From: Candidatus Nanohaloarchaea archaeon
GTDB lineage: Archaea > Nanohalarchaeota > Nanosalinia > Nanosalinales > Nanosalinaceae
Assembly: GCA_041640035.1 (NCBI GenBank)
Contig: JBEQBC010000004.1
Location: 1-49,480, forward strand
Direction: 5' to 3'
DNA: 49,480 nt
Positions 17,159 through 28,672 of this stretch are shown piece by piece (position 1 is the first letter of the stretch; the number at the start of each line of letters is the position of its first letter). Below the pieces are notes generated by a model. It searched no databases. It worked only from the letters and a program-made list of their open reading frames with translations, and was not told the DNA's origin. A program made the position numbers and the translations under genes.

Positions 17159-17710
17159 TTATTCTGTTAGGTCGACTGTGTTTTCCACTGAACTGTTTAC
17201 GGCTTCTGTGAGTTTTTCGTCCATCTCTTCTTCTACACCTATCAGCACCGATTTTAGAGGCCAGCCGCTCATCTTGTTGCTTAGTTTCTGAAGGAATTCT
17301 ATTATCAGGTCTTCATCGTTGTAGATTGAAAGTGTGGAGATGGTGTCGAAGATTATCATCGCGTCTCTGTCTTCTGGCTTGGCTTCTACTGCATCGTCCA
17401 GCTGCATGTTCACCTGGTTGATATCTTCAGGATCGAAGAAAACGGTGTTTTTGACATTTTCAGGTGCCTCTCCCGAAACCTTTGTTGCCATATCGAAGAA
17501 CAGTACTTTTTCAGTATCTATGTCTCGTTCCTCTAACATGCTCTTGACTTTCTTGCTTGTCTTTATGCTTCCGATATATACTACCAGGTTTCCGTCATTT
17601 GTTACTTTCTCTATTGTTTCGTTTACGAAGTTTCTCAGGTCCGGCGAGTTTATTGATACATAAACCGGTTCCTGATTCTCCAGATCTGCCACTTCTTCAG
17701 GGTAATCCAT
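17159..17710 (-). CDS. Inactivated KaiC/RecA-fold domain protein
   Basis: VVYI, LFFD, IIFDTISTLSIYN...EFL match the RecA/KaiC core, but there is no Walker A. Confidence 0.72.
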   Translation of the reverse strand: MDYPEEVADLENQEPVYVSINSPDLRNFVNETIEKVTNDGNLVVYIGSIKTSKKVKSMLEERDIDTEKVLFFDMATKVSGEAPENVKNTVFFDPEDINQVNMQLDDAVEAKPEDRDAMIIFDTISTLSIYNDEDLIIEFLQKLSNKMSGWPLKSVLIGVEEEMDEKLTEAVNSSVENTVDLTE

Positions 17711-17822
17711 AAATCGACTCTGGAAATAACTGCTTTTTTCCTGTTATTAAATTTTCCGGAATCAAGCTGTTTGAAACCGGTTTAAGAAAACTTTAAGTTT
17801 GAAACAGAGACAGTTAGTTTAC

Positions 17823-18809
17823 ATGAGTGCGATGGAATGCAGTGAATGTGGGCATGAATTCCCCTCGAAGAAGGCACTGAAAGCACATGTATCAGCAAAA
17901 CACCCTGATATGAATCCGAACAAGGTCGGAGAACAGCAGGAGGAAAGCGAGAGCGGTGCTGAAGAGGAAGGAAATCCGTGGTCTGAGTTCAATGATGACT
18001 CTGAATCGGACACTGATGAAGACGGGGAAGAGTTTACTGCAGGGCAGAAAGACGAGTACATCAGAACCGGTGTTAGCGGTCTCGACCATCTTTTCGGAGA
18101 CGGAATCAGGAAAGAGAATGTAGTACTTGTCGCAGGAAATCCTGGTTCGGGTAAGTCAATATTCAATCTTCAAATGGCCAATCATGCCGCGAGAAACGGT
18201 GAAAAAGTTCTTTTCATGAGCTTTGAGGAATCACCTGACGCTCTTATCAGCCATATGGAAGATTTCGGTTGGGATGGACAGAAACATGTTGATGAAGGAA
18301 ATATCGTAATCGAAACATATGATCCCTTCGATGTATCTCGTACCGTCGAAGCATTATTCAAGAAACAGAGTGGAGAGCTTGAAATCGATACTAAGCCTTT
18401 GATGTTCGGAGATCTCGATGAAGATGTAAATTCATTCGATCGTGTTGTAGTTGACTCCTTATCCGCCATCTCAGCAGGTTTCTCAGAAAAATCGAAGAAC
18501 TACCGTCTTTATGTAAGAGAACTGTTCAACTTATTCGCTGAAGTCGGTGTTACCGCGTTTGTGATCGCTGAGTCCCAGACTATCCCTGATCAGATCACGG
18601 AATCAGGTCATGCAGAGTTCTTGGCTGACGGAGTACTTTTAATGTACAAACAGCAGAGCAGCCGTGGAATGCAGATCTACAAGATGCGTGGAACCAACTT
18701 CGAGGAGAAGATCGCACCTATGACAATAGAAGGTGGCGTAGGACTCAATGTAAGACATAAGGATTCGTTCTTCGGAAGCGGAAACGACGATTCAGGCGGA
18801 ATGTTCTAA
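17823..18809 (+). CDS. KaiC/RAD55-like single-domain ATPase with N-terminal C2H2 zinc finger
   Basis: CSECGHEFPSKKALKAHVSAKH; acidic linker; TGVSGLD, GNPGSGKS, SFEE, VVVDSLS, LADG, KMRGT. Start at ATG 17823 with TTTAAG about 25 nt upstream. Confidence 0.92.
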   Translation: MSAMECSECGHEFPSKKALKAHVSAKHPDMNPNKVGEQQEESESGAEEEGNPWSEFNDDSESDTDEDGEEFTAGQKDEYIRTGVSGLDHLFGDGIRKENVVLVAGNPGSGKSIFNLQMANHAARNGEKVLFMSFEESPDALISHMEDFGWDGQKHVDEGNIVIETYDPFDVSRTVEALFKKQSGELEIDTKPLMFGDLDEDVNSFDRVVVDSLSAISAGFSEKSKNYRLYVRELFNLFAEVGVTAFVIAESQTIPDQITESGHAEFLADGVLLMYKQQSSRGMQIYKMRGTNFEEKIAPMTIEGGVGLNVRHKDSFFGSGNDDSGGMF

Positions 18810-20119
18810 TTATCGTGAACTTCTCCCTTGTGAATATGCATACCGCGTTCCGTATCGAAAACATCTCCACATACAGGACACGCTACACCTTCATCTTCTG
18901 AACTTTCTTCTTCCGACTCATCCTCATCTTTGTGCTGCTGTGTCTCATGGATGTGAAGTCCTCTCTCAGTACCGAAGCTTTCACCGCACTCGTCACAGCT
19001 CCACTCGTCTTCATTCTCATCCTCCTCTTGTTCTGAAGGATCGAATACCTCAACTTCCTCATGTGTCTCCGATTCATTGCTTTCCTCATTATCTTCTTGA
19101 CTGGTTTCGTCTTCTTTCTCTTCACTCTCCTGATCCTTCTGAACTTCCTTATCTTTCTGCTCCTCTACAGGTTCTTCGCTCCTTTTTTCTTCCTGCTTCT
19201 TCTCTGGCTCTTCTTCTTCCTTGGGTTCTTCTTCTATCTGTGTATCTATTTCTTCTTCCTCATCTACCGTTGTGTCAAAGAGCAGTGAGCGGCGTTGCTG
19301 TATCTTCCTGTTGATTAACTCTATGTCTTCGACAACATCTCTTCTCATCTCCTCAAACCTGTCAAGTTTCGTTTCGAACTGGATTGAAGAACCCTCTTTA
19401 CGCATGTAATACTCCTTCTGTATATCTGTGATCAGTTCTTCTAGAACATGCTCCTTAATCCGTTTCCTCTTCTTCCTCTTCAGCAACCTGTAAGTATTGA
19501 ATTCTTTGAAAATTAATGTAGCGACTAGAAGACCTAGGAGGGTGCTTGAAATAACTTTCAAGGTATTTGATCTTACATAATTAACTGCAGCATCTATTCT
19601 AGCGGTTAATGCCTCTTGCTGGGCTGCTGCAAAGCTCTGTATCTGTGTTCTTGCAGACTGTGCTTCTGATATTGAGCTGTAACCTTCTTCTACATGTGCG
19701 TCTGCTTCCTCAAATCTCTGGCTCTCAAAGTCAACCTCTGCGGCCTCAAGCTCCTGCTTGGCTGAAGTAAGGTTTACACTGGTATCTTCTAGTTCCTGTA
19801 TACGCATGCTTAATGCCTCAATACGGTCTGAAGCCCTAATAGCTCTCTGCTGTATCGTCGATATCTGTTCTGTAAGCTCGATGGCTCTCGAGTAATCTGC
19901 TGTACCTCCTTCTTCAGCAAAGTTTTTCTGAGCTAGGTACGAGTTGTTCGCTGTTTCCAGCAAGTTTTCAACTCTTTCAGTAGGAATACCTTCTTCCTGC
20001 ATTAGGTCAACCTCTTGCTGTGCGTCCTGGATTGCAGAACTGGTTTCGTTCGCGGATTGAGCTGAAGCAGCTCCTGTGAATACTACTATCAGTGCTATGA
20101 AAGCTGTTATTTTTCTCAT
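18806..20119 (-). CDS. Single-pass membrane protein with helical ectodomain, coiled coil, acidic linker and two C2H2 zinc fingers
   Basis: Signal-like N-terminus, TM VISSTLLGLLVATLIF followed by a basic stretch, CDECGESFGTERGLHIHETQQH and CPVCGDVFDTERGMHIHKGEVH; SD GGAGGT and ATGA overlap with the giant gene. Confidence 0.88.
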   Translation of the reverse strand: MRKITAFIALIVVFTGAASAQSANETSSAIQDAQQEVDLMQEEGIPTERVENLLETANNSYLAQKNFAEEGGTADYSRAIELTEQISTIQQRAIRASDRIEALSMRIQELEDTSVNLTSAKQELEAAEVDFESQRFEEADAHVEEGYSSISEAQSARTQIQSFAAAQQEALTARIDAAVNYVRSNTLKVISSTLLGLLVATLIFKEFNTYRLLKRKKRKRIKEHVLEELITDIQKEYYMRKEGSSIQFETKLDRFEEMRRDVVEDIELINRKIQQRRSLLFDTTVDEEEEIDTQIEEEPKEEEEPEKKQEEKRSEEPVEEQKDKEVQKDQESEEKEDETSQEDNEESNESETHEEVEVFDPSEQEEDENEDEWSCDECGESFGTERGLHIHETQQHKDEDESEEESSEDEGVACPVCGDVFDTERGMHIHKGEVHDN

Positions 20120-23100
20120 TCTGTTTTACCTCCGCTTGAAACTAATGGTATTTTCTCCATGATTCTTCCTGCAAGGCTCTGTGATCTTACCTGTGCCTTA
20201 GCATCAATCTCTGCTATTTCTCCCTCGATCTCTGAGAGTCTCTCAGTAAGTTCCTGTACTTTCTCCTGGTAGATCTCGTCGTCGCTGATGTTTCCTTCAA
20301 GGTAGTCTCTCTGTGTTTCTTCAATCAGGTTTCTGAGCTGGTCTCTTTCCTGGGCAAGGCTGTCGCGCCGCTTGAAGTTCGTGATATTTGCCTTCTCTGT
20401 TTCCAGCTCTACTCTTTCCTCGATTATCTGCACTATTTGCTCGTTGTAATCGTCTACGCTGTCTTCATATTCGGAGAGCGAGATATCTTTCTCTTCGAAT
20501 GCTTTCTTCTGTTTCTGGATCTTAAGATCTTCTATACTTTTCTCCTCAGATTCAAGATCTCTCAGTCTCTTTCTGATCTTGTAAAGTCTGTATCTCAGCT
20601 TCGCAGCGAAGGCGACGATCGAGAATATTATTATCGCAGCAAGTATCTTTTTCCAGTTAGATCTTATCTCGTAAACCCAGTTAACTTCTCCTGCAGTTTG
20701 AAGCTGGTATGTGCTCTCTGCTTCTTCAAGTCGGTCGGCTGCGGTGGTGTAAGCTCCTCTGTCAAGTGCTGCTTCTGCCAAGCTTGCAATCTGCCGGGTT
20801 CGACCGACTGAAAGTCCTGATGCCTCTGCTGATTTTATCTGTTTTTCAAGTTCTCTGAGCCCATCTCTTGTATCCTGCGCTGTCTGGTAGCTGCTCTGCA
20901 ATTCCTCGTAGTTCTCTCTAACGGAAGCATAGTCTCCTGACTCAAGGTTATTTTCTGCTTCGCTGACCAGGCTTTGAAGATCTGCTGTTGAGAGATTTTC
21001 GTTTCTCATATCTTGGATAAGCTGTTCGGACTGGTTGAGAAGTTCTGAGGCGTTATCTTTTGGAATAGCTCTTACTCCTAGAGAGATATCTTTGTTGAGT
21101 GTGAATCCGAAGTAGTCTGCGTAAGGTCCTTCTCCGTCGATTCCTTTCCCTGTTATGTTGAAATTAAGGTCGTAGTCCCCGGTTTGGAAGTACTCAGGTG
21201 CCGTTATCTGAACTGTGATGTTCTTGGACTCGTTGATGTTCACTCTTCCAAGATCGGGGTTAGCTAACCTGAGGTACTGGCTTTGAATTCCTTCAACATT
21301 TGCCGTGATGTTTGTCAGGTTGAAACTGGTTGGGTTCTGGAAACGGACTGTAAAGTTCTGATCCTGTCCTCTGACAATCTCAAAACTCTCTGAAGTATTG
21401 AATATCTGGTCTGAACGCTGCTCAACTTGCTCACTTGAAGTCGGACCTGAACCACCTCCTCCTGCAAATCCGCCTCCTCCGTCTTCCTCTATTACTCTGG
21501 TGTTGTTCTCTGCTTTCTCGACTACCTCGACTTCGAAGGTTTCGTTGAACGATCTTTCCTTCTCTACAGCCTCAACGAAGACGGTCTTTGTACCTGTTGA
21601 AGCATTTGCAGGTATGTCTACGACTGTGCGGTTTGTCTTTGAGGATCCTGCAGATATATTGCCGATACTGTAACTGTTTCTGGAGACTGTCCATTCCTCT
21701 GGGAAGCTGTATTCTACCTCTGTAAGGTTAGAGTATTTGGTTCCGATGTTCTCTATCTTGGTTGAGAAAACTACATCTTCATCTTCCTGTGTTACCGCTC
21801 CTGGGAAGCTTACTCCTTCACTTATCTGCAGGAATGGTCCGTCCTGAATGAATCTGGCTAGGCCGCTGATCTCATCATACCCTGGCTCTGGAACAGGATC
21901 TCCCGAATTGGTTTTTGAGGAAGTCAAGTTCAGATTAAATGTACTCGTCAGACCATTCGAAAGATCGTTGTCGTTGAGACTTGCTGTAGCCTTAATACCT
22001 TCCTTTTCGCCAGGTGCAACTGTTACGCTGGAAGTGTTGAAGTCTATATTAAGATTGTCTGAACCTTTGTCTGCTACGCTGATACTGTAGTCAATGTCTG
22101 TATCTCCGTTGTTTTCTATCACTATATCTCTGAACTCTATACTGTTGCTTTCTAATGTACTCCGTTTACTGCTTCCGATGCTCAGAGGAGTTACGAACCA
22201 GTTGCTGTCTACTGCTACTAGCTGTGTGCGGTTGACGGTCTTCTGATTTCCTGCCGAGTCTTCAGCCAGTACTCTGAACTCGTATGTTGCTTCTTCGGTT
22301 GGTGTAAAGCTCCCCTGGTATTTTCCTAGATCTTTAGTCATGTCTTTCGCGTTCCAGGTGTTCGATGTGTTCTTACGGTACTGGAGGTCTACATTCGTGA
22401 CTCCGACATTATCTACTGCTGAAGCGTTCACATCTATAGGATTATCGGGATCGAAGTTTGCCTGACTGTTCGGATCTACACTGAAACCGGAAATAACAGG
22501 TGGTTCGATATCCTCAACACTGACTGAATCACTGTACTTTTCGAGGTTTCCAAGATGATCGAAAGCATAGACTGTGTAATCAAGAGTTCCGGCACTGATA
22601 TTCTCTGCTTTGATAGTTTTGTTAGCCCAGTCCCCGTTCTCCAGATTTACTGTCTTGTTGGTATCCGTCTGACTATCGTATATAACCACTTTATCCATGT
22701 AGAAGTTGTCGCTCCACTTGGAGTAGATAGTCACATTATCATTCTGTTCAAGAGTTGTTTCTGTGCTATTGCTTATGTTCAAACCATTACTGCTTTTTGA
22801 TGGACTCGTGATGTCAACTAGGAAGCTTTCAGTCTCTGAGATATTATCGCTTACTGTATTAGAGGTGTAAAGATCTCTAGCAGTTATATTCCATGTGTAT
22901 TCTCCATCTGAAAGTGTTTTCGATATGCTTTTCGAAGCTATACTATCATCGTTCACCACTCTACCATCTTGATCGTAGATATCAAGATCGTACTCTAATG
23001 TGTCTCCGTCGGCGTCGCTTGCGTTCCAGAAGAGGCTTACAGCGTCCTGAGTCAGGTTTTTGTCTATAGGTCTGTAGAGATCAATATTAGGAACTTCGTT

Positions 23101-26100
23101 CGGAACAGTATTGGAGACTGAAGTTGTAGCTGTCTCACTGTTATCGTCACTGAAATCTACACCTATATTTATATCTTCAAGAGGCTCCATCCAGTAATCA
23201 TCAGGATCAAAGGTCTGAGTACATTTAACCTCGCTTGCGTTACCATAGCCTGTATTCGGAGCTGGAGTTTCTTGAGCTGAATTGGAGTTGCTGTCGGAGA
23301 CAGTGAATGTGCAGGAAATGATATCTGAGTCGCTGTTTATATCTGCGGCAACTGCAGAGACTGTGAATTTATGGTCTGAATTGTTCTCAACGGTTGCCTG
23401 TTCGCTGATGTACGGAGCAGAGTTCTGAATAGTCTCGGTTGTATCGACAAGCTTGTAGCTGCTGGTTTTTCCGTATATATCTTCTGCCTGTACGCTCACT
23501 TCCCATTCCTCGCCTTCTGATGTGGAATCGGGTTCGACGGTTCTACTGGTTATTATGCTGCTCTCTCCTACTACTTTCCATTCATAGTTTGCCGAGATGT
23601 TGTCTCCCTCTGGGTCAGAGAGATCGTAGGTCACATTCAGTCTTTCATCGGTTTCAGGACTCGTAGGTGTAATCTGGATATTGCTTACTGAAGGCGCTTT
23701 GTTTGGTATGCTGTGAGATTCAGTGGGTGTTGAGATTGTGGAGCTGCCATCACTGATTTCCATGTAGATATTAAGGCTTTCACCGACTTCAAATCCTTCT
23801 ATACTATTATCTATACCGTTATATGTGATATTTACTTTCTTCGAGTCTATTTGTTGGATATCTGCACTGTATTCTTTGCTTGTTTCTCCGTCAGAAATAT
23901 GCAAAGTGGCTGTTGTTATGTCGTCCCAACCGTCATCGTCTCTAGCCACTGTCCAGAGATCAAAACTATGGCTGGTTTCTGAATCGCTGAACTGTAATCC
24001 TTTGACTATCTCTGGAGTTGCTTCACTCGTAGTAAAAGAACCTGTTAGACTATTCGTTTCAAAACCGTCTCCTGCAATTACAGTCCAGTTATAGGAAGTG
24101 TCTTCCACAACATCGAAATCGCTCGAGTTCCAGTAATCTCCGGAAGTGGAAGAAGATATATTTTCTTCGTTGATTTTCTTTGTACCGCTGCTTTCGTCCC
24201 AAACTGTGAATTCTGCCCATTCGACTGTGTTCGTGGAGTCTGTTATATCTGCGAAAATATCTGTACTGCTTGTACCTGTTAATTCATTAGGTGGCTCTGA
24301 TGATCCTGCATTGTTTATGGATGGTTCTTGGTTCATCGTGAAGCTTTTAGCCGTGGTTCTAGGGCTGCATCCGTATGGATCACATGCTTTGAGCTCTAGG
24401 TTGTATGTTTCTCCGTCAAGTAGTTCTACATTCTGTCCGAGGTTCATGCTGCTTCCTTCAGACTTGTTGAGAGTATTATCTAGGTTAGACGGATCTGATG
24501 AGGTTCCTACATAGGCCTGTATCTCGATATCGTCACCCTCGTCATCAGAGGGATTGTTCCAGTTTATCGAGAACTGATGATCTACCACATTGTTGCTATC
24601 GCCTACATCTAGAGTGACTCCCGAAGGAGCGCTTGGTACGCGGTTAGGTATAGTCTCTGATTGGATCGTGCTGTTAACCTTTGCTCTGTATTCGTCTGTG
24701 ATCTCTACTTTGGTGTTTATCTCTTCGTTGACCTTGAAGCCAGATATCTGGGAACCTATATCGTTGAATGTACATTCTGCGGTTCCTGTATCTACGGGTG
24801 TTATGGTTCTGGTGATGGAGTTGCCGTCTCCATCGCTTATGTAGGCTGTACAATGTCCGTTTGTCAGGTCTTCTATGCTGTCTCCGGGGTTGAAATCTGC
24901 TGTAACACTGAAATCATGGCTGTCGCTAGAGGGATTTGAGTCTATTTGGGCGAAGGTTGGAGGGTTGTTTGGTATTTCGAATGTTGTACTTGTACTTTCT
25001 ACTTCTGTACCTGTTATATCTGTGAAACGGGAGAAAACTGTTATGGATTCTCCAACCTCGAAGCCGCCGATACTGTCGTCGATTTCATCTGAACAACTTA
25101 CTTGGTTGTCTGTAGCTCCATAGTTTATGCTAGGATTTAGTGTTTCAGTATTTCCATCTGTATCTTCGGCCACGATACTACATGTTTCGAAGTCTCCTTC
25201 TCCATCTTGATCGCTGGCTTCGCTTGTGAAGGTGACGCTGTGTGAGTTCGATGAGATCTCTTCGTCCACACTATCTATAACCGGTTCGTTGTTCGGGAGG
25301 GTGTTGGTTTTGTTGTCTGTGTTTACAGTTATTCCGTTCTCTCCTTCGAACTTGATTCTGAAGTCTACTACATCTGAAGGTGTAAGAACTCCCTGTTTTT
25401 CGTAGCCTACTCCTTCAAGGCCCGTGTCTATAGTTGAGTTACATGAGGCTTGATCTGAGTCTCCGAAAGTGGTCGTAGGAGTTACATCAGTTGCTTTACT
25501 CCAGCCTAATCCCTTGGGCCTGTAATATACTTCACAGTTTGAGACTTTGTCGTCGCCACCGCTGTGAGTTGCAAAGGCAGAAATATCGAAGGAGTGTCCC
25601 GTTGAACTATTCTCTGCGCTTAGTTCTCCATCTATCTCCATGCCCGGCTGGTAGTTTAGGTTAGCAGAGTTAATCCGCCATGGTGTCTGTAGATCTGTGC
25701 TCGAGGAATTGAATTCGATTTTTGCACGGGCTGAAGCGTCCAGCTTTACATTGTAATTATTGTTTCCTTCTGTCAGGTCGATTACCTGTCTGTCTACTAT
25801 GTTGTCTGAGCTGTCTAGAGCTTTTAGAGTGGCATCAAGATCCATATCTGTTGGAATGCTTGTGGTATCTACATCCAGGCTGTTCCATGACTGTATCTGG
25901 CTGCTTCCGCTGTTTATTATCTCAGAACTGTAGCGTGCAGAATCGTGATAAGTGGTTTTAGTCAGGTTCCAGTCATCGAAGCGGGCCTCAACAAGTTCTC
26001 CTGAACTATGTGAGGTTGAGATTATTCCTACATCCTGTATACTTTGTATCCCTGAAGGTGATGCGGAGTTTACTGTCGTCCATGTGTCCCCTCCGTCTGT

Positions 26101-26757
26101 GGAACATAATCCTGTTAACTGATTTCCATCTTTGACCATTCTTACCTTGACAGGTTCAGTGTAGCTTGTACAGGCTTCTTGGTTAGAGTCAAGGTATCCA
26201 TCTCCATTAGAGTCGTACTGGAAGCTGACGCCGTTTCCTGGTGTTGCAGTGATGACTGCATAGCCGGTGGCTGAGGCTGATGCTGTCATGTCGTTTTTCA
26301 CAGCGATACCGGATTTTGCCCAGTCGTTCACATTGTCTTGCTGATATGTTACGGTGAGTGTGGTCGTCCAGTCCCCTGATATATCTTCTCTATATACTGC
26401 ACCATATTCATCATCATCTGTCCATATGTCTGCACCGCCAGCGAATATCTCTAACTGTTCATTAGTTTCGTCAAAACTAGTTCCACTATCTTGGTCTTGG
26501 TCTGTGGTCAGCCATTTGGGATTTAGGGAGTTGTCGTTGAAGTTGTCGATTATCTTTTCTTTCTGTAGGAATAGGTTTCCGTTCTGTACTGTGGTGTTTT
26601 CTGTGGTTCCTTTGTTCCATTCTGTGTCTGTGCTTAACTGGTAATCGGATGCTGCTCCTGCAAAGCTTGTTAGAACTGTTATTGAGATTATTAAGGCTAT
26701 TTTGGCAATCTTTGTTCCTTTTGCTTCTGGCTGTTCTGTTTCTGTTACTGTCATCAC
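20116..26757 (-). CDS. Giant (2213 aa) cell-surface protein: ConA/DUF1349-like lectin domain, Ig/FN3/CARDB-like repeats, TM anchor, cytoplasmic coiled coil
   Basis: Signal peptide; GGADIW...GDW...WAKSGI lectin-like block; S/T/D/N-rich beta repeats; many NxS/T sequons; Gly linker; TM ILAAIIIFSIVAFAA. Confidence 0.88.
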   Translation of the reverse strand: MMTVTETEQPEAKGTKIAKIALIISITVLTSFAGAASDYQLSTDTEWNKGTTENTTVQNGNLFLQKEKIIDNFNDNSLNPKWLTTDQDQDSGTSFDETNEQLEIFAGGADIWTDDDEYGAVYREDISGDWTTTLTVTYQQDNVNDWAKSGIAVKNDMTASASATGYAVITATPGNGVSFQYDSNGDGYLDSNQEACTSYTEPVKVRMVKDGNQLTGLCSTDGGDTWTTVNSASPSGIQSIQDVGIISTSHSSGELVEARFDDWNLTKTTYHDSARYSSEIINSGSSQIQSWNSLDVDTTSIPTDMDLDATLKALDSSDNIVDRQVIDLTEGNNNYNVKLDASARAKIEFNSSSTDLQTPWRINSANLNYQPGMEIDGELSAENSSTGHSFDISAFATHSGGDDKVSNCEVYYRPKGLGWSKATDVTPTTTFGDSDQASCNSTIDTGLEGVGYEKQGVLTPSDVVDFRIKFEGENGITVNTDNKTNTLPNNEPVIDSVDEEISSNSHSVTFTSEASDQDGEGDFETCSIVAEDTDGNTETLNPSINYGATDNQVSCSDEIDDSIGGFEVGESITVFSRFTDITGTEVESTSTTFEIPNNPPTFAQIDSNPSSDSHDFSVTADFNPGDSIEDLTNGHCTAYISDGDGNSITRTITPVDTGTAECTFNDIGSQISGFKVNEEINTKVEITDEYRAKVNSTIQSETIPNRVPSAPSGVTLDVGDSNNVVDHQFSINWNNPSDDEGDDIEIQAYVGTSSDPSNLDNTLNKSEGSSMNLGQNVELLDGETYNLELKACDPYGCSPRTTAKSFTMNQEPSINNAGSSEPPNELTGTSSTDIFADITDSTNTVEWAEFTVWDESSGTKKINEENISSSTSGDYWNSSDFDVVEDTSYNWTVIAGDGFETNSLTGSFTTSEATPEIVKGLQFSDSETSHSFDLWTVARDDDGWDDITTATLHISDGETSKEYSADIQQIDSKKVNITYNGIDNSIEGFEVGESLNIYMEISDGSSTISTPTESHSIPNKAPSVSNIQITPTSPETDERLNVTYDLSDPEGDNISANYEWKVVGESSIITSRTVEPDSTSEGEEWEVSVQAEDIYGKTSSYKLVDTTETIQNSAPYISEQATVENNSDHKFTVSAVAADINSDSDIISCTFTVSDSNSNSAQETPAPNTGYGNASEVKCTQTFDPDDYWMEPLEDINIGVDFSDDNSETATTSVSNTVPNEVPNIDLYRPIDKNLTQDAVSLFWNASDADGDTLEYDLDIYDQDGRVVNDDSIASKSISKTLSDGEYTWNITARDLYTSNTVSDNISETESFLVDITSPSKSSNGLNISNSTETTLEQNDNVTIYSKWSDNFYMDKVVIYDSQTDTNKTVNLENGDWANKTIKAENISAGTLDYTVYAFDHLGNLEKYSDSVSVEDIEPPVISGFSVDPNSQANFDPDNPIDVNASAVDNVGVTNVDLQYRKNTSNTWNAKDMTKDLGKYQGSFTPTEEATYEFRVLAEDSAGNQKTVNRTQLVAVDSNWFVTPLSIGSSKRSTLESNSIEFRDIVIENNGDTDIDYSISVADKGSDNLNIDFNTSSVTVAPGEKEGIKATASLNDNDLSNGLTSTFNLNLTSSKTNSGDPVPEPGYDEISGLARFIQDGPFLQISEGVSFPGAVTQEDEDVVFSTKIENIGTKYSNLTEVEYSFPEEWTVSRNSYSIGNISAGSSKTNRTVVDIPANASTGTKTVFVEAVEKERSFNETFEVEVVEKAENNTRVIEEDGGGGFAGGGGSGPTSSEQVEQRSDQIFNTSESFEIVRGQDQNFTVRFQNPTSFNLTNITANVEGIQSQYLRLANPDLGRVNINESKNITVQITAPEYFQTGDYDLNFNITGKGIDGEGPYADYFGFTLNKDISLGVRAIPKDNASELLNQSEQLIQDMRNENLSTADLQSLVSEAENNLESGDYASVRENYEELQSSYQTAQDTRDGLRELEKQIKSAEASGLSVGRTRQIASLAEAALDRGAYTTAADRLEEAESTYQLQTAGEVNWVYEIRSNWKKILAAIIIFSIVAFAAKLRYRLYKIRKRLRDLESEEKSIEDLKIQKQKKAFEEKDISLSEYEDSVDDYNEQIVQIIEERVELETEKANITNFKRRDSLAQERDQLRNLIEETQRDYLEGNISDDEIYQEKVQELTERLSEIEGEIAEIDAKAQVRSQSLAGRIMEKIPLVSSGGKTE

Positions 26758-26872
26758 GCAGGTATACCGTGGAATTTGTTTTCTTCCATATTAAATGTTC
26801 CAGCAGTTGAATTTGTCGCGGTTCGAATTCCTTACTACATCTAATTTAAACCTGTACAACCAATTTTACTGT

Positions 26873-27559
26873 ATGTTTCCTGTAACAGTTTACAGCCACT
26901 GGATATGGTCAGCTCTTATTTTCATGGCTTTCCTGGCTGTTTACAGAAAATACCGGCAGAATCAAAATGAAATGCTCAAAAACTTCGCCATGTTCTTCCT
27001 AATCTGGTCTCTGCCGTTCTTCGGGCTTATGGCAACGATGTTCGCTGCCGGAATCTACTTCAACATGGAAATACTACTAAGCCTGGGTTATGTTGTACCT
27101 CATATATTTGCATTTATCTCTGTGGGCTATCTGTGGAAAGTTCAGAGCAGTATAAACTTCCCGAAGTACGAGAAGCTGTTCTGGGGATTCGTAGCCTACG
27201 GCGTAGGTATAGGCTTGTTCGGAATAATGAACTCGCCTGAAGTCACGGTGATGAATGGTGATCTCCAGTACAGTGCAACAGTTTTCAACCAGTTGATACC
27301 GGCGGGTATGACGATTTCAGGTCTGTTGATTTCCGGAAGCAGCTTTTACTCTGCTTACCTGACGAAAGGCGATACGAGGAAGAAGCTCAGCTTAATCGGA
27401 GTAGGAACGGTACTCTGCTTGATTGTTGCATCTATGCTACATAACTTCGGTTATGCGGTAGCAGGAGAGGTAACAAACATGGTTTGGATAGGGATTTTCC
27501 TGGCTGTAGCTTACTGGCAAAATCTTCAGAACAGGATTCAATCTTTCAGAGGTAATTAA
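26873..27559 (+). CDS. Stand-alone 7TM membrane protein (HisKA_7TM-like sensor topology)
   Basis: Seven hydrophobic segments counted by eye and no cytoplasmic output domain. Start at ATG 26873 with TTTAAA about 22 nt upstream. Confidence 0.8.
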   Translation: MFPVTVYSHWIWSALIFMAFLAVYRKYRQNQNEMLKNFAMFFLIWSLPFFGLMATMFAAGIYFNMEILLSLGYVVPHIFAFISVGYLWKVQSSINFPKYEKLFWGFVAYGVGIGLFGIMNSPEVTVMNGDLQYSATVFNQLIPAGMTISGLLISGSSFYSAYLTKGDTRKKLSLIGVGTVLCLIVASMLHNFGYAVAGEVTNMVWIGIFLAVAYWQNLQNRIQSFRGN

Positions 27560-27560
27560 A

Positions 27561-27878
27561 TTGGACTACAAAGAACTTGTGCAGGTGATGATCGAACAGT
27601 ACCACGATATGGTGGGTGATGTAGCTTACACCCAGGCAAAGAGAGTGGAAAACCTTGAAATGGATGAAGACAATCAGGTAACCTCCAATCTGAACGAAAG
27701 CGATGTAGAGGAACTGTTAGATGTCTTCAGTGATGTGATAGGCCAGGGAGCGGTCGGAGTAGGTAGAAGAGCAGTAAAGGAGGCCTATGAACAGGATGAA
27801 TCAGTAAGCGATCTTGATATACCGGAAAAAATCAGGCCTAAGGAACTGAAGGCGGAATCCTTCGCATCAGCTCTTTAA
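27561..27878 (+). CDS. Small soluble helical protein coupled to the 7TM gene
   Basis: TTG start 1 nt after the 7TM stop, SD AGAGGT; paralog of 4191..4520. Confidence 0.82.
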   Translation: MDYKELVQVMIEQYHDMVGDVAYTQAKRVENLEMDEDNQVTSNLNESDVEELLDVFSDVIGQGAVGVGRRAVKEAYEQDESVSDLDIPEKIRPKELKAESFASAL

Positions 27879-28672
27879 TCCTCTTTCCAATCCAGTTTTT
27901 CTCTTAGTTCCTCCAGCGACTCTGAATTCTTGACAGCTCTCCCGAACTCCCGTATCTCCTCAATATCTATAGATTCCGGGAAGTAACCTTTCTGATCCTC
28001 ATAACCGTCCAGTAAACCTGCCTGCTTCAGACCTTTCAACACGACCCCGGCTGTTTCCTTCGGTACATCTTCAAGCCTCTCACCTATCTCATCAGAGTTG
28101 AAGAAACCGCTTCTCTTCTCACTCATCTCCTTCAAACCATCGTATACTTCATCGATGTAACGATGCATCTTCCCGTACATAGCCGGGTCAAAATCCATTA
28201 TATCACGGCTTACCTCAGGTCTGTTCTCCTCAATCGATCGGCTCATCTCACTGATTTTCCTCGCGGTACTGGCGCCCGAGCTCTTCATATGGGACATGAA
28301 TAGTTTCCGCAGCTTCTCGTAATCGTGGTCAGGGTGATTTTCCAGGACCTGTTCCGCGGCCTCTCTGATATCTACTTCTTCATCTTCAGGTTCCTGCGGC
28401 TGAACATCAAGTTCGTTCTCTACTCTTTCCCATGCAACTCCGTCCAGAAGAACTGCTTCCCAGGTCTTAGGATTATTACCGGTGTAAATCACATGCCGGG
28501 TTTCATCACTCTCCGTCATGTACTTCAAAGTCTTTCCAACCAGTTGAGGGCTGTAATCGTCCAACCTGTCGGCGATATCCTGGCTGGTGAAGCTCGAGGT
28601 TTCCTCAGACGCATATTCTTCTATCTCGGGTAGGACATCCTTGAGGTATCTTTCTTCCCAGGTCTTACTCAT
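27875..28672 (-). CDS. Hypothetical protein with two winged-HTH-like repeats
   Basis: FTSQDIADRLDDYSPQLVGKTLK and FNSDEIGERLEDVPKETAGVVLK. Confidence 0.7.
   Translation of the reverse strand: MSKTWEERYLKDVLPEIEEYASEETSSFTSQDIADRLDDYSPQLVGKTLKYMTESDETRHVIYTGNNPKTWEAVLLDGVAWERVENELDVQPQEPEDEEVDIREAAEQVLENHPDHDYEKLRKLFMSHMKSSGASTARKISEMSRSIEENRPEVSRDIMDFDPAMYGKMHRYIDEVYDGLKEMSEKRSGFFNSDEIGERLEDVPKETAGVVLKGLKQAGLLDGYEDQKGYFPESIDIEEIREFGRAVKNSESLEELREKLDWKED

Follow-up and report, generated by a model that had tools for sequence, protein, structure and literature searches.

A 49,480-nucleotide stretch of DNA from a Candidatus Nanohaloarchaea archaeon, referred to here as the window and constituting a whole contig of the 0.98-Mb, 24-contig source genome (G000), carries between positions 17,159 and 26,757 four genes, A to D, which very probably constitute one functional module and represent one copy of a conserved and unnamed DPANN gene module. 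The four products are a RecA/KaiC-fold protein without a P-loop (A), a KaiC-type ATPase (B), a small type-I membrane protein (C) and a giant surface protein (D), each encoded by a single-copy gene in this genome, and together they probably connect the surface of the cell with its interior. When the module is taken with the assembly, docking and switching steps proposed below, and the two adjacent genes E and F are regarded as unrelated neighbors, the resulting picture is the best explanation as a whole, with a probability of about 0.55. An earlier interpretation made from the letters of the DNA (the sequence-only reading) had joined A to F into one signaling locus of six contiguous non-housekeeping genes, with the zinc fingers of C among its hallmarks. 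The six open reading frames (ORFs) do lie where that reading had placed them, and the rest of the 49-kb contig is occupied by housekeeping genes (Hel308-type helicase, ThyX, SHMT, FBPase, SMC/ScpAB and others); the linkage of A to D was upheld, the membership of E and F and the place of the C fingers in the core were not, and signaling and attachment control are retained as putative roles.

The co-localization of these genes, on which the sequence-only reading had staked its own refutation, is kept in four families of the phylum and in a second DPANN class. A search of 41 relatives with B gave full-length orthologues (E ≤ 3e-45) in 8, and C lies beside B in all eight of these phylum genomes; a trimmed C profile detected C in 11 of 70 phylum genomes, which include the eight with a B orthologue. 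Across the four families, the linkage of B, C and the giant protein is kept with gene order and flanks changed. The arrangement of the window (A<>B><C<D, with A divergent from B, B convergent with C, and C following D) recurs in G001 and G002, which belong to this genus, and in G008 and G024, of genus g7 (D there 4057 amino acids). Both genera also share their flanks, a Hel308-type helicase on one side and SHMT with a VTT-domain protein on the other, so that synteny in these two genera is by itself weak support for a functional link. More telling are the cases from other families. The order is B><D<C in G026, between LemA-like and FEN1-like genes (labels given by ORF reading), and C is convergent with B (C><B) in G025 and G039. 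A-like proteins accompany the module in four phylum relatives, and in G040 an A-like gene without a P-loop occupies the position of B (A><C<D, with a D of at least 1545 amino acids). In G037, which belongs to the genus of G026 and has the same flanks, only an 87-residue finger stub of B and a 210-residue stub of C are left (L086 9371-10149), which looks like the result of a single deletion that took out the KaiC domain, D and the end of C.

Beyond the phylum, an HMMER search with the C profile against 1.84 billion representatives returned 1648 proteins at E ≤ 0.001, 405 of them at E ≤ 1e-30, the matches being either stand-alone proteins of ~270-330 amino acids or the C-terminus of proteins of 1200-3500 amino acids. 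The few named members of the C family are 'hypothetical protein' entries from metagenome-assembled genomes of Nanohaloarchaeota and Woesearchaeota, and the nearest Protein Atlas clusters to C are unnamed 'hypothetical protein' clusters of Nanobdellota and Aenigmatarchaeota. None of the nine C-family members scanned has a Pfam domain over the anchor; one of the nine carries FG-GAP repeats in its head. One Woesearchaeota record was used as the entry to a second DPANN class, that of the record itself, comprising 301 genomes, among which C was detected in 27, a B-type KaiC (E ≤ 1e-60) in 34, and both in 24. For the neighborhoods, every C and D-tail match was taken with flanks of up to ~8 kb on either side (29 stretches), and the ORFs were scanned with the profiles. 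Of the 27 C-bearing genomes of this class, 18 have a B-type gene no more than 5 kb from C or D (in one of them broken into two pieces); in the others, B is on the same contig at 6.4 and 11 kb (two genomes), on another short contig (five), or was not found (two). In at least 19 of the 27, D and C are immediate neighbors on one strand, and in 8 the fetched stretch contains A-like genes without a P-loop. The placement of B varies in this class: it may stand downstream of C, face C in convergent orientation as in the window, precede D, or lie between the two genes, and this varied gene order argues for retention of the linkage through rearrangements.

The KaiC domains themselves point in the same direction. 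A maximum-likelihood tree of 51 domains, obtained from 57 domain hits after six identical copies were dropped, with ORFs shorter than 180 amino acids and hits covering fewer than 150 profile columns left out, and midpoint-rooted only, gathers the 22 cluster-linked B rows into a single group (98/91) that excludes the 29 paralogues; in G000 itself, B has a score of 459 bits and the next-best KaiC paralogue one of 136. B is a member of a single orthologous group, made up of one-domain KaiC ATPases, that travels with C and D. In the same tree, the B proteins of G025 and G039 (families f2 and f3) group with those of the second class, not with the finger-bearing B of family f1 and G026, which suggests either two B subtypes or transfer between DPANN lineages.

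The mechanism proposed for the module starts at the cell surface, where D and C would come together, by way of their homologous stalks and membrane helices, as a complex for host contact. A ring of B would dock on the conserved cytoplasmic tails of the two proteins, with A serving as a non-catalytic partner or adaptor of B. The ATP or phosphorylation state of B would either report contact inward or set the state of the adhesin outward, and an inward signal could act via the N-terminal zinc finger of B, a possible DNA-binding output. The docking of B on the C and D tails and its action as a switch are offered tentatively, at somewhat under an even chance; the fuller version, a kinase-free, one-step surface-to-genome pathway in which an integrin-like, two-way D/C heteromer at the host contact would load or release, with its conserved tails, a B ring capped by A, and in which the ATP or phospho state of that ring would be read directly on DNA via the finger of B, is speculative and improbable as a whole.

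B (17823..18809, forward strand) combines a predicted C2H2 finger, an acidic linker and a single-domain KaiC-type ATPase in 328 amino acids. Its ORF is open from a TTG at 17799, and the true start is probably the ATG at 17823, because the homologues measure 311-334 amino acids; with this start, the divergent intergenic region shared by A and B is 112 base pairs long (17711..17822). The earlier description of B as a divergent and intact KaiC-like ATPase agrees with its match to PF06745 over residues 88-320 and profile positions 1-228 of 231 (E 9.8e-43; 146.6 bits against a cut-off of 26.6), and with the catalytic site, since G105, G108 and K111 of Walker A, E135, E136, and D211 of Walker B are invariant in a 20-row alignment. 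B is not a circadian double-domain KaiC, having one domain and scoring 109 bits against 408 and 61.8 against 546 with NCBIfam PRK09302 and TIGR02655, respectively. The N-terminal finger (17838..17903, forward strand) is predicted from its C-x2-C-x12-H-x4-H motif, at a sub-threshold Pfam score of 19.9 bits against a cut-off of 27.

This finger leads to the main rival of tail docking, namely that B is a local regulator of the D-C operon, whose finger binds the promoter and whose KaiC domain works as a timer or sensor, with no contact to the tails. The predicted finger is kept in B of G001, G008, G024, G026 and G039, other relatives have different N-terminal extensions (Lys-rich or, by eye, helix-turn-helix-like, the latter reading having been set aside as Pfam did not confirm it), and such regulators commonly remain beside their targets; as a parallel, the KaiC-family GvpD has a role in regulating gas-vesicle expression, according to the available portion of PMC4858521. 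A purely local regulator would leave unexplained both the conserved 157-residue tail of D, together with the juxtamembrane helix shared with C, and the A-like gene in the place of B in G040, and it fits poorly with an N-terminal extension that is the least conserved part of B and an ATPase core that is invariant. The local-regulator role is accordingly regarded as unlikely as a full account, and it could hold at the same time as tail docking. As a separate observation on these extensions, the non-halophilic relatives (L142, L143, L144, L147 and L148) have a B with a long Lys-rich N-terminal extension opening with a 'GFF..IF'-like motif, which also occurs on one C tail, and the halophiles have the finger and acidic linker instead. 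As a motif shared by B and C it was rejected, being present in 2 of 42 B-family hits, in none of 73 C-family representatives, and nowhere in the control region.

A (17159..17710, reverse strand), a protein of 183 amino acids divergent from B, has Pfam scores that are all below the cut-offs (DUF7090, 23.7 bits against 27; KaiC PF06745, 21.0 against 26.6). The RecA/KaiC fold without Walker A that had been read from its sequence is borne out by the structure model and by the absence of the motif. The AlphaFold2 model (14-row alignment) has a pLDDT of 88.4, and its best Foldseek match is the RecA-superfamily/KaiC-like ATPase PH0284 (E 1e-6, TMq 0.77), followed by FlaH, the KaiC-like PH0186 and KaiC; no GxxxxGK[ST] is present in A or in any A-like ORF of the scanned loci, and the family alignment lacks Walker A. 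By its model, A has a RecA fold, its P-loop having been lost, and the label 'dead KaiC' is used for A because of the fold match, not because of its sequence.

The match of A to FlaH also bears on a different role for the two cytoplasmic proteins, in which B and A would be assembly or maintenance factors that insert, fold, oligomerize or turn over the giant protein and its partner, in an ArlH-like structural capacity. A KaiC-like precedent is FlaH/ArlH, which in the available text of PMC5019145 binds FlaI and the FlaX ring and serves the archaellum motor both structurally and in its regulation, and the tight and often operonic linkage of the genes would suit such a role as well. B, for its part, is not an ArlH, as it scores 38 bits against the NCBIfam cut-off of 215, and neither archaellum genes nor an ArlI/ArlJ-type partner occur in the window. 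KaiC-type ATPases are not known to act as insertases or unfoldases, and the assembly-factor role is considered improbable.

The two membrane proteins, C and D, are encoded next to each other, the start of C overlapping the stop of D by 4 nucleotides and the stop of C overlapping that of B. D (20116..26757, reverse strand) has 2213 amino acids and is the longest ORF of the assembly; it is a type-I membrane protein exported by Sec, and C (18806..20119, reverse strand; 437 amino acids) is a paralogue of the D anchor without the head. In D, an N-terminal signal/anchor (residues 17-35) is followed by an ectodomain of ConA-like and Ig/CARDB-like domains and then a helical stalk, a membrane helix (2038-2056) and a cytoplasmic coiled-coil tail of ~157 amino acids; in the head, NPCBM_assoc (CARDB-like) is matched in Pfam at E 2.2e-9, and the ConA-like GH43_C2 only marginally, at 22.8 bits against 22.7. 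There are no tandem DNA repeats in D. C has a signal peptide, a membrane helix at residues 186-204, an acidic tail and two predicted C2H2 fingers. The C-terminal modules of C and D, described earlier as related, are indeed homologous: BLASTP aligns the two proteins around the membrane helix at E 1e-4, and hhalign aligns the C profile with the D-tail profile at 98% and E 1.6e-13 over 203 columns, the C alignment having been built from six sequences of five genomes (G002 providing the second from this genus) and the D tails from five genomes. The homology spans the membrane-proximal helical ectodomain, the membrane helix and the first cytoplasmic helix, so that the anchor module occupies residues 24-257 of C (19349..20050, reverse strand), including the juxtamembrane helix, and residues ~1901-2106 of D (20440..21057, reverse strand). 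Searches of PDB sequences with D and with the C profile brought up nothing beyond coiled-coil or Ig noise. Conservation within D is highest in the tail, with 72% identity to G001 against 44% over residues 595-2213, and the head varies by lineage, with ConA-like and Ig/CARDB-like domains here and FG-GAP repeats in some relatives.

A giant ectodomain joined to a membrane helix, a coiled coil and a P-loop ATPase also recalls SPEARE proteins, as these are described in the available parts of PMC6642349 and PMC10266531, and hence a transport device in which the B ring would drive protein or nucleic acid through a pore formed by the D and C helices at the host contact. The weak matches of B to the DnaB_C and RadA/Sms models could be read in the same sense. 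Set against this are the single membrane helices of D and C, with nothing to suggest a pore, the score of B as a typical single-domain KaiC and not as a VirB4/FtsK type, and the lack of secretion components in the cluster. Transport is considered very improbable.

C carries its two fingers in the cytoplasmic tail (residues 375-396 and 414-435; 18815..18997, reverse strand), where they reach 27.7 bits with zf-C2H2_4, the cut-off being 27. G001 has them as well, and the C orthologues of G008, G024 and G026 lack them; in g7 a different repeat stands in the finger position, and C of G026 has no tail. The classical C-x2-C-x12-H-x3-5-H finger occurs in eight ORFs of G000 (contigs C1, C2, C11, C12 and C21), and in this lineage the reuse of eukaryote-style C2H2 fingers as a module seems to be common. 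Being limited to this genus and built on a motif common in the genome, the C fingers are a local elaboration and not part of the module core, against their earlier treatment as a hallmark of the locus. The fingers of G000 are often found at the protein end near acidic linkers. The fingers shared by B and C had also been considered as a specific link between the two proteins, a candidate that was rejected since the motif is present in eight ORFs of the genome.

Several points weigh against the coupled module as it is proposed here. The conservation on which it is founded is not complete: G039 has no D in the 12.3-kb contig that holds C and B, B was not found in 3 of the 27 second-class genomes with C, and 10 genomes of that class have B without a detected C. 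The 'B-type' label was set by profile score and is partly circular, the tree itself having been computed without the label, and the genomes are related and hence non-independent samples, with many short contigs. Gene linkage would also be expected if B were a local transcription regulator of the D-C operon. The sequence link between the A and B families is weak (hhalign probability 3%, E 0.014), the putative adhesive function of D is suggested by its domain types and by these only, and the physical coupling of B and A to the tails is a putative one. A complex prediction with B 78-328, A and C 205-290 gave a score of 0.01 against a mark of 0.32, a result that counts neither way.

E and F were placed by the sequence-only reading in the same system as A to D, and the distribution of the two genes speaks against this. 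E (26873..27559, forward strand) is a seven-helix membrane protein of 228 amino acids; its ORF would encode 254, and 22 of 22 homologues start at Met27. F (27561..27878, forward strand), which follows after a one-base gap, is an acidic cytoplasmic protein of 105 amino acids. The model of E (pLDDT 92.6) contains seven membrane helices, in agreement with the seven-transmembrane assignment made earlier, and has VIA Z scores of 16.2 to designed folds like those of G-protein-coupled receptors and of 15.0 to ADGRL3, where bundles reach ~13-14 by arrangement alone; the best Foldseek E is 1.4e-3. No Pfam family covers E or F, and no Protein Atlas match to F at 0.9 or above was found. G001, G024 and G005 have F after E, G037 has an F-like gene in divergent orientation to E, in G035 two E-like genes enclose F (L059 7147-9236), next to a Roadblock/LC7-like ORF (label by eye), and E and F are fused in a metagenomic relative, P0044, of 342 amino acids. 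From this conserved pairing and from the fusion, E and F are a real two-gene unit, and the small coupled partner claimed for the membrane protein is thereby substantiated.

That all six genes form one signaling locus is favored by the position of E and F, divergent beside D, in G000 and G001. The E profile finds E in 8 of 41 relatives and does not find it in G008, which is 98% complete in one contig and has A to D; in G024, two other genes separate E and F from D; and in G005, G037, G035, G015 and G026, E is located elsewhere with no C, D or B beside it, in G005 among housekeeping genes of a genome in which no C or B orthologue was detected. Since they are found without A to D and E is missing from G008, E and F are separate from the A-D module, and the six-gene locus is extremely improbable.

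Some further genes lie around the module and its neighbors. A 265-residue acidic protein without a Pfam family (window 27875-28672, reverse strand) converges on F with a 4-nucleotide overlap and is kept beside thymidylate/folate genes in G008 and G024, at 47-48% identity. Genus g7 has two small membrane ORFs of 101-110 amino acids between A and B (L032 2612-3247; L033 3579-4232). In G026 and G037, a protein of 904-911 amino acids and an ORF of 167-188 amino acids stand beside the module (L034 12808-13374; L086 13070-13573), and the N-terminus of the latter resembles, by eye, an archaeal class III (pilin-type) signal peptide.

How DPANN archaea recognize, hold and exploit their hosts is an open question, and their genomes are almost devoid of classical signaling genes. 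The module offers a small and concrete set of proteins that has persisted in at least two DPANN lineages even though genomes there are extremely reduced. This window adds the nanohaloarchaeal variants, with the finger of B, the fingers of C and A divergent from B, as well as the separateness of E and F and the remnant in G037; the locus is trimmed by the seven-transmembrane pair, which becomes a separate and also uncharacterized two-gene unit. If the surface-to-genome pathway were true, DPANN symbionts would sense and control host attachment with three or four proteins. Nanohaloarchaeal co-cultures now exist, and the module is testable there. No published description of the trio of giant protein, headless anchor and KaiC was found, in a search outside which lay supplements and arCOG neighborhood tables that may list the trio.

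In comparison with known systems, KaiC ATPases are tied to type IV pili loci in the available portion of PMC4858521, where no connection is drawn between KaiC and a giant type-I surface protein accompanied by a headless paralogue of its anchor. The closest resemblance to D in general design is found in SPEARE, which in the portions available of Hamm et al. 2019 (PMC6642349) and of PMC10266531 has a fused conserved cytoplasmic ATPase, read as type III restriction-like in the former and as VirB4/TraG-like in the latter and later account; the likeness comprises a giant Sec-exported ectodomain of adhesion type, a C-terminal membrane helix, a cytoplasmic coiled coil and an associated P-loop ATPase, and, as far as these portions go, both SPEARE and A to D are proposed host-contact devices of the same phylum. 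The difference lies in the tail of D, a coiled coil with no ATPase match in Pfam, in the separate gene for a KaiC-type ATPase, and in the headless paralogue C. D is not a SPEARE by the defining feature, because it has no fused cytoplasmic ATPase domain. ArlH/FlaH is likewise single-domain and KaiC-like and sits at the membrane with a coiled-coil scaffold, FlaX, and both the model of A and the sequence of B match it weakly; B differs in its low score to the ArlH family, in a window without ArlI/ArlJ or archaellin genes, and in having its own tree group.

Integrins have short cytoplasmic tails able to pass signals both ways, with talin and kindlin as cytoplasmic partners. The likeness of D and C to integrins is a functional analogy, with paired type-I proteins, a large head, a stalk, single helices and short tails, and with FG-GAP repeats in some relatives of D; no homology is claimed, and the cytoplasmic partner here would be a KaiC ATPase, not talin or kindlin. 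Archaeal KaiC-like ATPases have reportedly been proposed as signal-transduction hubs, by Makarova, Galperin and Koonin in mBio in 2017. The module resembles this idea in that B, a single-domain archaeal KaiC ATPase with intact motifs, occurs with an inactivated RecA-fold homologue, A, and with membrane proteins, and if the proposed coupling is true, the 'KaiC hub' would gain a defined membrane input.

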